From a virus, in UHGV virus genome UHGV-0848487: a stretch of DNA of 40,883 nucleotides; one strand, 5' to 3'. A model generated the notes under the pieces. The model did no database searches, was not told the DNA's origin, and worked only from the letters and a program-made list of their open reading frames with translations. Each line of letters starts with the position of its first letter. Positions within the stretch are counted from its first letter, which is position 1. The position numbers and the translations under genes were made by a program. Positions 25,507 to 30,656 of this stretch are shown piece by piece.

Positions 25507-25598
25507 AAATTTACTGGTTATATGAAGAAGACTGTCGAATCTGCCCTCGCTGCGGTATCGCGCATACGAAACGGGAGGGGTGTATAGATGAGTACGCC
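25503..25598 (+). CDS. small Cys-rich peptide (31 aa), hypothetical
   Basis: ATGA overlap; CRICPRCG ... C motif. Confidence 0.25.
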
Positions 25599-25875
25599 TG
25601 AGGGGCGCGTGCAGAAATACGCAAAAGAGCGATTCGAGGCCCTGGGAGGCCTCGTACGCAAATTGTCGTACGAAAATAGAGCGGGCGCCCCCGACCTGCT
25701 GGTAATTCTCCCTGGTGGCATCATCTGGTTCGTCGAGGTTAAGAAAGACGAAAACACGAAGCCGGACCCGCACCAGTTACGAGAGCACGAGCGGATGCGT
25801 AAACGTGGTGCAAATGTTTTTGTCGTTGGTTCGTTTAAACAGGTTGACGACCTAATAGCGGGCTATTATAGTTAA
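25588..25875 (+). CDS. VRR-NUC domain nuclease
   Basis: GAPDLLVILPGGIIWFVEVKKDENTKPDPHQ matches VRR-NUC PD-(D/E)XK core; RBS GGGAGGGG. Confidence 0.7.
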   Translation: MSTPEGRVQKYAKERFEALGGLVRKLSYENRAGAPDLLVILPGGIIWFVEVKKDENTKPDPHQLREHERMRKRGANVFVVGSFKQVDDLIAGYYS

Positions 25876-25905: not shown

Positions 25906-26100
25906 ATGAGACACGAATATGACCGCAAACCAGCACGTGACATCGTACCGGGTGACATGATTTTCAACGTTAAGACACGTCAACCTGTTGCCGTTGATAC
26001 GGTGTTCGTCGAGTCGAACGGTAAACTGGTTATCGAAGATGTAACGGGTAACGTTACGGCGTTCGGGCGTAAAGAGCTGGTACTCTACATTAAGGGTTGA
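25906..26100 (+). CDS. hypothetical protein (64 aa)
   Basis: ORF track; RBS AAGGAA. Confidence 0.45.
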   Translation: MRHEYDRKPARDIVPGDMIFNVKTRQPVAVDTVFVESNGKLVIEDVTGNVTAFGRKELVLYIKG

Positions 26101-26102
26101 TT

Positions 26103-27527
26103 ATGTCTAAATTTATCCGTCGAGAGTACCAAAAGCTCATGACTTCATTCATGCTGCGGCATCCGCGCTGTAATATTTGGGCTTCGATGGGCGCGGGCAA
26201 AAGTTCCGCAACGATGTGGGTGCTTAACCGACTGTTCCGCAACGGCCAACTTAATGATGATGACCGCGTGTTAATCCTCGCCCCTTTACGTGTTGCGTCC
26301 GGTACGTGGCCATCAGAACAAACTAAGTGGGGATTCCCGTGTCTGCGCGTCGTAGATGCGACCGGTTCAGAGAAGCGCCGCATCGCGGCGCTGGAGTCAG
26401 ATGCTAACGTGGTGTGCACTAACTACGAAGTTATCGAATGGCTGATTGACTACTACGGCAAAGACGACTGGCCTTTTACCGTTATCGTCGCCGACGAAAG
26501 CACGAAGCTGAAATCATTCCGCAGCCGTTCAGGTGGAAGCAAGAGGGCGAAGGCGCTAAGTAAAGTTGCGTTCGGTAAGGTTAAGCGTTTCATTAACCTG
26601 ACTGGTACGCCGTCGCCGAACGGCCTCAAGGACTTATGGGGCCAGAACTGGTTTATCGACGCGGGTGAGCGCCTCGGTTCTTCATACACAGCATTCACCG
26701 ACCGCTGGTTTAACTCGGTACAGAAAGGCAAGTCAGCTATGGCGCGTGAGTACCATGCGCGCCCGGGCGCAGATAACGAGATTCACCAGAAGATGAAAGA
26801 CATTAGTCTCACGATTGACGCCGCCGAGTGGTTTGGATGTGAAGCGCCGATTATTGTACCAGTGGAAATTGACCTGCCGAAGAAAGCACGTCAGGCGTAC
26901 ATCGATATGGAGGAAAAGTTATTCGCGGAACTGGAGAGCGGGGAAGTTGAAGCGGCTAACGCCGCGGCGAAGACCTCAAAATGCTTGCAGCTTGCATCTG
27001 GTGCCGTATATGTGACGGGCGAAGACGGGGAAGCAACGAAAGACTGGGAGAAAGTGCACGACACGAAACTGGATGCGCTGGAGTCAATTGTTGAGGAGCT
27101 ACAAGGTGCGCCGTTGCTTGTGGCTTATCAGTTTAAGCATGAACTGGAGCGCATCCTTAAGCGATTCCCGCAGGCGCAGGCGTTCGCCAAAGGTGCGAAG
27201 GGTAATAAGCAGATGGAAGCGTGGAACCGTGGCGAAATCGAAATCTTATGCGTGCACCCGGCGTCAGCCGGGCATGGTTTGAATTTACAGGACGGCGGGC
27301 ATCATCTGGCGTTTATTTCGCAAGGCTGGAATCTTGAGCACTATTTGCAGGTTGTCGAGCGTATAGGCCCGGTCCGCCAGAAACAGGCTGGCCACGAGCG
27401 CCCGGTGTTCCTTTATCACATAGTCGCTAAAGACACTCTTGACGAGGTTGTTGCCGCGCGTACAGACGAGAAGAAATCGGTCCAGGAAGAATTGCTTAAT
27501 TATATGAAGAGAAGAGGTAAGAAATGA
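26103..27527 (+). CDS. SNF2-family DNA helicase
   Basis: GAGKS Walker A, VIVADESTKLK motif II, NLTGTPSPNGLKDLW motif III; preferred ATG 26103. Confidence 0.7.
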   Translation: MSKFIRREYQKLMTSFMLRHPRCNIWASMGAGKSSATMWVLNRLFRNGQLNDDDRVLILAPLRVASGTWPSEQTKWGFPCLRVVDATGSEKRRIAALESDANVVCTNYEVIEWLIDYYGKDDWPFTVIVADESTKLKSFRSRSGGSKRAKALSKVAFGKVKRFINLTGTPSPNGLKDLWGQNWFIDAGERLGSSYTAFTDRWFNSVQKGKSAMAREYHARPGADNEIHQKMKDISLTIDAAEWFGCEAPIIVPVEIDLPKKARQAYIDMEEKLFAELESGEVEAANAAAKTSKCLQLASGAVYVTGEDGEATKDWEKVHDTKLDALESIVEELQGAPLLVAYQFKHELERILKRFPQAQAFAKGAKGNKQMEAWNRGEIEILCVHPASAGHGLNLQDGGHHLAFISQGWNLEHYLQVVERIGPVRQKQAGHERPVFLYHIVAKDTLDEVVAARTDEKKSVQEELLNYMKRRGKK

Positions 27528-27661
27528 ACATCATAGCCCCGATTCCCGCATTGCAAAAACGTATCAAGGAACTCGAAGAGGAGGTTCTACGACTACGACA
27601 ACAGAGGGATGCCGCTAATGCACAACTGGCGTTTGTACTGGAGAAGCTATCAGAAGAGTAG
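27524..27661 (+). CDS. small coiled-coil peptide (45 aa), hypothetical
   Basis: ATGA overlap with helicase stop; under track cutoff. Confidence 0.3.
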   Translation: MNIIAPIPALQKRIKELEEEVLRLRQQRDAANAQLAFVLEKLSEE

Positions 27662-27665
27662 AGAA

Positions 27666-27685
27666 AAGGCCCCGTTTGGGGCCTT
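27666..27685. terminator. bidirectional intrinsic terminator at convergent junction
   Basis: AAGGCCCC-gttt-GGGGCCTT flanked by A-run upstream and TTTTATTT downstream. Confidence 0.6.
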
Positions 27686-27689
27686 AGTT

Positions 27690-30644
27690 TTATTTATCTT
27701 CTAGTGCTGCCAGCCTCTTCTCGAACTCGCGCATCTTCTTACGCTGATAGGCAATCTCTATGAAGAACATCTGGTCCGCCCTAACCCCCCATCTGCCGCC
27801 GGGAGGGGATACTTGTACAGTCTGGCCATCTTCATCAATATCATACGCAGCTTCAATTGAGTCGTAGCACAAGAAAGCATATTTACAATCGGTAGAATCT
27901 TTCTCCATAAGCCCATGGTTGACCAAGATGTCTCGCACATCTTGGGCTATCACACCGAAGTGTATCCTTGCAGTGTCACCCTTGATTGCTAGGCTTTCAA
28001 GCCACTTAAAAGATATTACATGTATATCCTCCCATGCGGTAAGGAGTTGTCCCTCAATTTCCTCTTTGTTCGTCTTAAGTGTACCATCAGACGTGTTTAT
28101 CGTACCGGTGGCCGCGTACACCGTAGTCCACCTATTACTTGCCGAACCTAAAGACACTCGCGCGTCTAAGTAAGGAAGAAAATTGTTGTATGAGTAGAAG
28201 CCTCCTGACGCATACATAATAGCCCTGTTAGGCGTTGCATGGTTTGCCCCGTACAGTTGCAGCAACGCACCATCGGAACTGGATGCACCATCACCACCGC
28301 TAACTATCAGTCTTTGACCCGATGGGGTTTTAGTGGGGACTGTTTTTGAAATCAGCCCGTAATCACCATCAAACCGTGCACGCACGGCGGACTGTTGTGT
28401 ACCATCGTATTCCAGCCCCGTTACATGCAGGGAGTACACGCTTACATCATTGTCAAACGTTAAAGGTGCTTCTACATGGCGTACACCATCTACCCCCATG
28501 GCGACAGGTATTGTACGGTTAGGAGTTGCTCCGTATTTGAAATCACGTGATACGTACGGGTGGTCTTCAATCTTTATCCGGTAGCTATATAAGTCAGCCG
28601 GATGCCCATCATGTTTGTACCATAACCTCGCACTGTTATCCCCTATGCTCCAGGGAGAGAAGAAGTCTTCCCCACCAAAGATATAGTACAACCAGCCATC
28701 TTTAACACAGACCGAGCCGACGCCGACAGCAGAGTTAACGATATGACCCTGGTATATTTGGTCGGTAATATTAAACCACTGAACATCATCTAAAGATGAA
28801 GGCCAGGACGACACATTAACTTTGCACATAAAGGTCCTCGGATACGAACCTTCATAGCGGCTGTCCTGCTCGCCACCTTCCCACTCACCAAAGGCACGTT
28901 CTGTACCAAAGATATAGAGATAGTCACCTACTTTAGCGAACGGAAGATTGGAGTGATGTACATTGTTCGGAAATCGCAAGTAGCTCCAGTTTTGCCCAGA
29001 ATCGGTGCTCATCGCCAGTGTAGAGCCAGGGGAAGTAGGTAATGTGCCGCGTGTGGTAAGGTATAACACACCACCATAACTTTTCACGCACGGCTCAGAA
29101 GCGTTATCAGCGTATGCCTGAGCGACAGTGCGACGAACGAATACGCCTGGATTGTCATACACGTTACTAAAATACAAGACACCGAGACGCCGAGGGGACA
29201 CATCGCCGTTGTGATAGCCGACAGCGATAGTGTAGTTAACATCATCTATGACCGCAAAACTATGTGTCTCCGTGACACACAAATCAGCGTTAGTGGAGTA
29301 TGCTACCCCAGGCAATTCGGTAATTTCCCACGGGCTGTCCCAGAATCGCGTTGCGAAGTTCCAGGTAACACCCGCATTGTTTATGGTGGAACTCGCCGGG
29401 CTTGAGAGCGTAACAGTGAACGTATTTCGGTTAATTATAGACGAAACCGTCATATTACCCGATACGCCAGTTGCCGATGTATTAGAGAAGTTAACCGCAT
29501 CTCCTGCTTTTAGGCCATGATTTTCTATGACAATGGTAGCAGTAGTGGAGCCAGAACTAATAGTTATTCCGCCGGTTGGGTGTCTAAAATACGGCATTGG
29601 GCGTGACCAAAGTTCTGCCTTCTTCATCCGCATATTAGATAAGTAGCGGGTTTCTATAACTGCATATAATCGGTTGCCACACGTACCCATGCTCATGCAG
29701 TGGTAGTTAACTCTGTCCGTAGAAACACTAGCGTTATAGTCAGCATGGATTGGAGTCAACCACTCAGGCATTGACCAAGTCTGCCCGTCGTCACCAGAGC
29801 GAACCCAAGCTACATGTAAGTTTTGAACGCCATGTCGTTCGCCTGCCATAAACGGGGCGTAAATAACATGGTCGTAGACGAAAGTTTTATCCTGCGTCCA
29901 TGCGTTGTAGAACGGGGTATCCGTCACCTTAGTTAGTGAGCCGTTAAAGAAGCCATCAGCTACATAAGTAAGCGGTTGCCCGGCTACGCGCTCGTAAACG
30001 AATGCAGCATTCTTAAATTTACTAATGTCAGGTAATTGGGAAACTTTATAAGTCAAACCCCTGCCGTCTATAATCCAATTGTTGGGGGAAGCTGCTAATA
30101 CATTAAAAATAGATTGAGTATCATCAGTTACGCCGTCGCCCACGGCGCCCCATGCGCGCGGGTCGTATTCGTCCTTCCATCGCGCCACATGTAAATCTGG
30201 GTACAGAATTGCACCATTTACATCAGATATTTGCTGCCGCAGTATGACCGACCCGACAGGCTGCCACGCCCCATCTGCCACGCCACCGGTGGACTGCGGA
30301 GAAGATGACGCTGGGATAATTTTTGGTAGAGCACCCAACCAATAGTACCAATCCCCGTCACCGCCAGAGGACGACGGCCACAAAACTGCGGTGTTTCGGT
30401 CGTTAGCGGATAGTGTACCGCCTGACGTGAAATCAAAATCTGCCAGTTTAAAACCTGCGTCACGCAACACGGCGGGGAGTGTCTTCTGCGTCTGTCCAGT
30501 AACCTGATTTGTCGCGTAATCAATATCGGCACCACCGGCGACACCGCCGGATTTGCCAGTGATAACCTCGGCCTCGAAAATCTGATGTTTCTTGGCGGTT
30601 TGTAAATCCGCCAGGCTTAAAACGTCACCGCATCCGCTTGACAT
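27690..30644 (-). CDS. tailspike / tail fiber with sialidase-like beta-propeller (candidate endosialidase) and C-terminal intramolecular chaperone domain
   Basis: 984 aa; Asp-box motifs SGDDGQTW and STDSGQNW; C-terminal SDGTLK ... HFGVIAQDV region resembling autoproteolytic chaperone domains of endosialidases/tail fibers. Confidence 0.7.
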   Translation of the reverse strand: MSSGCGDVLSLADLQTAKKHQIFEAEVITGKSGGVAGGADIDYATNQVTGQTQKTLPAVLRDAGFKLADFDFTSGGTLSANDRNTAVLWPSSSGGDGDWYYWLGALPKIIPASSSPQSTGGVADGAWQPVGSVILRQQISDVNGAILYPDLHVARWKDEYDPRAWGAVGDGVTDDTQSIFNVLAASPNNWIIDGRGLTYKVSQLPDISKFKNAAFVYERVAGQPLTYVADGFFNGSLTKVTDTPFYNAWTQDKTFVYDHVIYAPFMAGERHGVQNLHVAWVRSGDDGQTWSMPEWLTPIHADYNASVSTDRVNYHCMSMGTCGNRLYAVIETRYLSNMRMKKAELWSRPMPYFRHPTGGITISSGSTTATIVIENHGLKAGDAVNFSNTSATGVSGNMTVSSIINRNTFTVTLSSPASSTINNAGVTWNFATRFWDSPWEITELPGVAYSTNADLCVTETHSFAVIDDVNYTIAVGYHNGDVSPRRLGVLYFSNVYDNPGVFVRRTVAQAYADNASEPCVKSYGGVLYLTTRGTLPTSPGSTLAMSTDSGQNWSYLRFPNNVHHSNLPFAKVGDYLYIFGTERAFGEWEGGEQDSRYEGSYPRTFMCKVNVSSWPSSLDDVQWFNITDQIYQGHIVNSAVGVGSVCVKDGWLYYIFGGEDFFSPWSIGDNSARLWYKHDGHPADLYSYRIKIEDHPYVSRDFKYGATPNRTIPVAMGVDGVRHVEAPLTFDNDVSVYSLHVTGLEYDGTQQSAVRARFDGDYGLISKTVPTKTPSGQRLIVSGGDGASSSDGALLQLYGANHATPNRAIMYASGGFYSYNNFLPYLDARVSLGSASNRWTTVYAATGTINTSDGTLKTNKEEIEGQLLTAWEDIHVISFKWLESLAIKGDTARIHFGVIAQDVRDILVNHGLMEKDSTDCKYAFLCYDSIEAAYDIDEDGQTVQVSPPGGRWGVRADQMFFIEIAYQRKKMREFEKRLAALEDK

Positions 30645-30656
30645 ATAGAGTCCTCT

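Follow-up and report, generated by a model that had tools for sequence, protein, structure and literature searches.

Tailspike endosialidases form a well-studied family. Descriptions of these enzymes, of their structure and self-cleaving chaperone, and of the sequence type considered here have been available since 2000-2015, and near-identical proteins have been tested in experiments. The enzyme of phage 63D is counted in a review among the characterised endo-N-acetylneuraminidases. According to the same review it was described as a homotetramer, which disagrees both with the trimeric depolymerases that the review presents and with the trimer to be expected of a protein with such a chaperone domain; the classification of the enzyme is unchanged by this. 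For another close relative, JSSK01 ORF40, immunogold labelling was seen at the tail tips, and the recombinant protein removed the K1 capsule and agglutinated only K1 strains. Phage ULINTec2 was found to be K1-dependent, and some K1 strains were not plated by it. In phage phi92, the product of gene 143 (endoN92) is reported to degrade polysialic acid of the alpha-2,8 as well as the alpha-2,9 type (Schwarzer 2015, as summarised in a paper that cites it). The residues most important for the function of the K1F tailspike (endoNF) have been defined by a deep mutational scan (PMC12632334): H350, R549, E581, R596 and R647 are the key catalytic or substrate-binding residues, and Q330, D331, H527, S528, K585 and N699 are conserved in a second shell. 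It is also known that the self-cleavage of endosialidases is carried out, after folding of the trimer, by a Ser-Lys dyad located at the beginning of the chaperone domain (PMC3742443).

The window analysed here, i.e. the whole stretch of 40,883 nucleotides, is a 40.9-kb Kagunavirus genome (Guernseyvirinae, K1G-like siphovirus). Outside the tailspike gene it is 93-96% identical at the nucleotide level to the best-matching Kagunavirus genomes, and its gene order, in which the tape measure is followed by minor tail proteins, an 851-aa J-like tip protein, the tailspike and then a terminator, is collinear with that of K1G. The tailspike operon is convergent with the genes for a helicase and a DNA polymerase. 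The tailspike itself occupies the slot after the J-like tail protein and carries an N-terminal anchor that is 67-100% identical to those of Kagunavirus tailspikes. It is encoded by a single uninterrupted open reading frame with an ATG start (Table 1), with which K1G ORF27 and the coding sequence of 63D endo-N agree in length and start. The ribosome binding site adjoins the end of the upstream tail-tip gene (stop codon 30657-30659); in the 63D record a ribosome binding site is annotated at the equivalent place. Beyond the tailspike stop codon lies a hairpin with an 8-bp GC-rich stem (-15.5 and -16.0 kcal/mol) and a T-rich tract on either strand; the annotation of phage Schulenburg has a bidirectional terminator in this place. 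Antisense reading frames of 60-108 aa lie within the tailspike gene; nothing in the K1G annotation corresponds to them, and they were treated as spurious. Scans of the whole window for tRNAs and Rfam families gave no matches.

Table 1. Features of the tailspike locus, in coordinates of the window.
Feature	Position	Strand	Basis and remarks
Complete tailspike endosialidase precursor gene	27690..30644	-	984 codons plus stop (27690-27692); list of open reading frames
Ribosome binding site AGAGGA	30651..30656	-	6 nt before the tailspike ATG; upstream sequence read directly
N-terminal virion-anchor module, aa 1-131	30252..30644	-	includes Tail_spike_N (PF18668), aa 97-131, E = 1e-13
Endosialidase N-terminal extension, aa 167-233	29946..30146	-	PF12218 End_N_terminal, E = 7e-38; aligned to 4hiz and 1v0e
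Catalytic six-bladed beta-propeller, aa 234-693	28566..29945	-	PF12217 End_beta_propel, E = 8e-223; carries H271, R485, E517, R532 and R583
Asp-box 1, SGDDGQTW, aa 283-290	29775..29798	-	identical in endoNF and endoN92
Beta-barrel inserted in the propeller, aa 351-433	29346..29594	-	PF12195 End_beta_barrel, E = 6e-41
Asp-box 2, STDSGQNW, aa 546-553	28986..29009	-	aligns to SRDIGQTW in endoNF and SADLGENW in endoN92
Stalk domain, predicted trimeric, aa 694-851	28092..28565	-	PF12219 End_tail_spike, E = 2e-74
C-terminal intramolecular chaperone, predicted self-cleaving, aa 852-984	27693..28091	-	Peptidase_S74 (PF13884); 3gw6
Bidirectional intrinsic terminator hairpin	27666..27685	.	pattern scan; 5 nt 3' of the tailspike stop, between convergent operons

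The domain architecture was determined by a Pfam scan, scored against curated cut-offs. The endosialidase-specific models and Peptidase_S74 were all found far above cut-off and in the canonical endosialidase order: End_N_terminal, End_beta_propel, End_beta_barrel, End_tail_spike and Peptidase_S74. The N-terminal extension scores 128.5 bits against a cut-off of 26.3 and the propeller 739 bits against a cut-off of 24. The inserted barrel is matched over the full length of its model (138.8 bits), and the stalk model follows the propeller with 249.5 bits, trimer formation being predicted by homology. Peptidase_S74 covers aa 852-912, directly after the stalk, with 48.9 bits against a cut-off of 22. 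In PHROGs the whole length of the protein matches "tail spike protein" with E = 2e-291. The generic BNR/Asp-box models of Pfam stay below threshold (BNR_2 and BNR, with E = 0.018 and 0.46), which is to be expected of models for short repeats and was not counted against the assignment, since the family-specific model overrides them.

The closest sequences point in the same direction. At the DNA level the gene shares 99.2% identity with that of phage vB_EcoS-UTI89UKE1, and the protein shares 99.3% of its amino acids with K1G ORF27, "tailspike 63D sialidase" (ADA82273.1), 98.3% with the ULINTec2 spike, 97.8% with the 63D endo-N-acetylneuraminidase (BAA32990.1, AB015437) and 97.3% with JSSK01 ORF40. 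The exact 984-aa sequence is already present in public assemblies. In an annotated collection of phages, records with at least 95% amino acid identity number 22, and the phages of those that name a host serotype had been isolated on E. coli O18:K1. The 90%-identity cluster to which the protein belongs has 208 members, the named ones being annotated as tailspike endosialidases. From these results we can conclude that the gene almost certainly codes for the endo-N-acetylneuraminidase (endosialidase) tailspike of a K1G-like siphovirus, which would cut the polysialic acid of the K1 capsule. A K1 capsule depolymerase had been proposed from the sequence, and this proposal is well supported by the 97-99% identity to tailspikes of O18:K1 phages and by the capsule removal described for the recombinant JSSK01 protein. 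The endosialidase is at the same time an already described, ordinary member of its family, and no new biology is involved.

Solved structures give the same picture in greater detail. The best match in the PDB is 4hiz, a chain corresponding to phi92 gp143 (E = 0, aa 166-851), and the next matches are the K1F endoNF structures 1v0e, 3gvl, 3gvj and 3gvk (about E = 1e-230). The C-terminal domain matches the endoNF chaperone 3gw6 (E = 7e-57) and 3gud (E = 1.5e-10). The sialidase-type beta-propeller proposed earlier is borne out by the End_beta_propel match and by the approximately 79% identity to the crystal structure 4hiz over aa 166-851, and this match excludes a non-sialidase propeller without the need for a predicted model.

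The linkage specificity of the propeller deserves separate consideration. The K92 capsule consists of alternating alpha-2,8/alpha-2,9 polysialic acid, and it is possible, although we consider it rather doubtful, that the tailspike is bifunctional like endoN92, cutting both linkages, with E. coli K92 as another possible host. The propeller is 82.7% identical to that of endoN92 and 57.8% identical to that of endoNF, the alpha-2,8-specific K1F enzyme, and gp143, the closest crystallised relative, is the protein for which cleavage of both polymers is reported in the secondary source mentioned above; in that source's account the dual activity belongs to phi92 only. At endoNF K410 and Q853, presumably polysialic-acid binding-site residues, the window protein carries instead the phi92 residues, N337 and L794. 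However, its close relatives have all been reported on K1 hosts only, and no test of a K1G/63D-type enzyme or phage on K92 turned up in a literature search. Such bifunctionality would refine the identification as a K1 endosialidase and not replace it, and the classification is unaffected. If it were true, the widespread K1G/63D-type spike could allow infection of K92-capsulated E. coli, and the 208-member cluster would be a natural panel for mapping the determinants of linkage specificity in endosialidases.

Much less probable is that the tailspike is catalytically dead and only binds polysialic acid, which would serve as its receptor and stay intact. Inactive endosialidase mutants do bind polysialic acid, but in the alignment all five key residues of endoNF (H350, R549, E581, R596 and R647) are kept in the tailspike as H271, R485, E517, R532 and R583, and all six second-shell residues (Q330, D331, H527, S528, K585 and N699) as Q251, D252, H461, S462, K521 and N637, which argues strongly for an active enzyme, as does the stripping of the capsule by the 97.3% identical JSSK01 protein.

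The two Asp-boxes on which the proposal of a sialidase fold was originally based are present in the propeller (Table 1). The pattern S.D.G..W occurs exactly twice in all six frames of the window, both times in the tailspike, and the chance expectation for a protein of the same size and composition is approximately 0.015 matches. Both Asp-boxes lie at positions that are conserved in the alignments with endoNF and endoN92. Short motifs can arise by chance and the generic sialidase propeller model BNR_2 is below threshold, but the excess and family conservation of the two boxes, endosialidase-specific scores of 128-739 bits and the matches to solved structures and near-identical proteins refute the reading of the Asp-boxes and SDxxxK as coincidental motifs of an unrelated tail fibre, or of the protein as an ordinary bacterial-type exo-sialidase, to which we give practically no credence.

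The C-terminal domain, for which autoproteolysis and a chaperone-like function had been suggested, is identified as an intramolecular chaperone, predicted to be self-cleaving, by Peptidase_S74 and by the endoNF chaperone structure, together with a complete Ser-Lys dyad. The motif SDGTLK occupies aa 852-857, and the Peptidase_S74 model begins at aa 852. Ser852 (codon 28089-28091) and Lys857 (codon 28074-28076, both on the minus strand) align with S911/K916 of endoNF and S757/K762 of phi92. In the GenBank record of phi92 the boundary between mature endoN92 and the released C-terminal domain is T756|S757, which aligns to T851|S852, and cleavage of the tailspike is therefore expected between T851 and S852, on the strength of this homology. 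The signature S-D-x-x-x-K given in the original prediction marks the right site, but its Asp does not belong to it: K1F has Asn at this place (SNGERK versus SDGTLK in the window), and the signature is rather Ser...Lys at i and i+5.

A plausible course of events can be proposed by homology. The 984-aa precursor would fold with the help of its C-terminal 133-aa chaperone, which would drive trimerisation and folding of the stalk, and the chaperone domain would then cut itself off at Thr851|Ser852 by means of the Ser852/Lys857 pair. The mature spike would have approximately 851 aa, with the first approximately 131 residues attaching it to the tail tip. The six-bladed propeller, with H271, R485, E517, R532 and R583, would cut the alpha-2,8-linked polysialic acid of which the K1 capsule is made, and by depolymerising the capsule the phage could tunnel to the outer membrane and the cell surface. 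As the way to the cell would be opened by the propeller, infection probably depends on the polysialic-acid capsule. The expectation that the host range is limited to polysialic-acid hosts thus holds in one part, namely that the capsule is required; it is not sufficient, because the relative ULINTec2 misses some K1 strains, so the capsule does not guarantee infection. The window can be marked as a K1-capsule-dependent Kagunavirus with a predicted host range, which helps in annotation and in selecting phages or depolymerases for use against the E. coli K1 of neonatal meningitis and of the urinary tract.

In comparison with known systems, the tailspike is most similar to K1G ORF27 and the 63D enzyme, with which it shares the length of 984 aa, the start, the domain order and the position after the J-like tail protein. 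From K1G ORF27 it differs in seven residues (given as window residue, position and K1G residue): R673K, G776A, A828S, R829Q, S836G, A845T and D919S. The stalk accounts for five of these and the propeller and the chaperone for one each; the catalytic and cleavage residues are untouched. With phi92 endoN92 the cassette of extension, propeller, barrel, stalk and chaperone is common from approximately aa 133 of the window protein. Besides the propeller, for which the value was given above, the N-terminal extension is 75% identical, the stalk 70.9% and the chaperone 71.4%. Phi92, however, is a myovirus, its protein has 918 aa and another N-terminal anchor, and its chaperone domain contains two insertions that the window protein does not have. 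K1F endoNF (gp17; 1v0e, 3gvl, 3gw6) shares the architecture, the catalytic residues and the cleavage dyad, and is homologous also before the catalytic cassette, where aa 6-165 of the window protein are 41% identical to it. Overall identity to endoNF is nevertheless only 48%. The alignment begins at aa 6 of the window protein, and K1F carries approximately 85 additional N-terminal aa, which we take to be T7 gp17-like, with no counterpart in the window protein.

A different kind of relationship is seen with the non-sialidase tailspikes of the Kagunaviruses vB_Eco_K-01 and Schulenburg, which are of the K1-independent type. They have the anchor of approximately 131 aa in common with the window protein (67-74% identity), the first 46 aa being nearly identical and the similarity fading past about aa 131, and they occupy the same genomic place, followed by the bidirectional terminator. 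Their receptor-destroying C-terminal parts, in proteins of 711 and 790 aa, are on the contrary wholly different, and no endosialidase domains were aligned in them. DNA matches to other Kagunaviruses with different spikes likewise end at nt 236-393 of the gene, and the phi92-type myovirus endosialidases and the enzyme of phage P64441 align only from aa 133-135 on. These limits of alignment indicate that the tailspike is a Kagunavirus anchor fused to the endosialidase cassette, which is exchanged among sipho-, myo- and podoviruses: it occurs in phi92-like myoviruses too and, as a more remote relative, in K1F-like podoviruses. The modular pattern is in accordance with that already documented in K1-dependent and K1-independent K1G-like phages (PMC11641727).

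The endosialidase of phage 63D, 97.8% identical to the tailspike encoded here (a 984-aa endosialidase precursor, 27690-30644), is characterised as a homotetramer according to a review which also states that depolymerases in general are homotrimers. The report of a 63D homotetramer and the homotrimer rule for depolymerases form a discrepancy that still stands in the literature. The C-terminal chaperone domain carried by our tailspike is a trimerisation device. In megablast the tailspike gene of Shashou (MK931440.1) has only its first 236 nt, i.e. the N-terminal anchor module, in common with the tailspike gene of the window, while its record reads "tailspike endosialidase". Judging from this sequence comparison, the label may have been transferred from the N-terminal module alone.

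The features neighboring the tailspike gene are listed together with those of the helicase side. The tail-tip protein has strong PHROG "tail protein" matches and no Pfam match, and its homologue in Schulenburg, a Kagunavirus with a non-sialidase tailspike, is annotated as a lambda J-like tip attachment protein. The hairpin, with calculated energies of -15.5 and -16.0 kcal/mol and tracts rich in T on both strands, is a bidirectional terminator that separates the convergent tailspike and helicase-side operons; in Schulenburg a bidirectional terminator is annotated at the equivalent slot.

Features flanking the tailspike gene and on the helicase side
Feature	Position	Strand	Remarks
DNA polymerase, 726 aa	23205-25385	+	Pfam DNA_pol_A and PHROG matches
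95-aa ORF	25588-25875	+	between DNA polymerase and helicase
45-aa ORF	27524-27661	+	overlaps helicase stop codon (ATGA)
Hairpin	27666-27685	both	AAGGCCCC-GTTT-GGGGCCTT; perfect GC-rich 8-bp stem
Tail-tip protein, 851 aa	30657-33212	-	immediately upstream of tailspike

In the DNA polymerase the Pfam DNA_pol_A model spans only aa 371-468, and the PHROG "endonuclease" family phrog_93 matches aa 445-538 (E = 3e-13). The polymerase domain of this protein may be divergent or interrupted. The 95-aa ORF gave a sub-threshold match to the VRR-NUC nuclease domain (18.9 bits, cut-off 23.8). Scans of the whole window turned up neither a tRNA gene nor any Rfam family that reaches the gathering threshold, and comparison of the window ends revealed no terminal direct repeat.

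The 45-aa ORF that follows the helicase is rich in charged residues arranged in a heptad-like pattern, and all of its matches to Pfam coiled-coil families are sub-threshold. Its position is taken in the related phage K1G by the hypothetical protein ORF28. On the other side of the helicase the two genomes differ: in K1G the C-specific DNA methylase genes ORF30/31 separate the helicase from the 64-aa ORF, whereas the window is devoid of both and the 64-aa ORF (25906-26100) directly adjoins the helicase start (26097).
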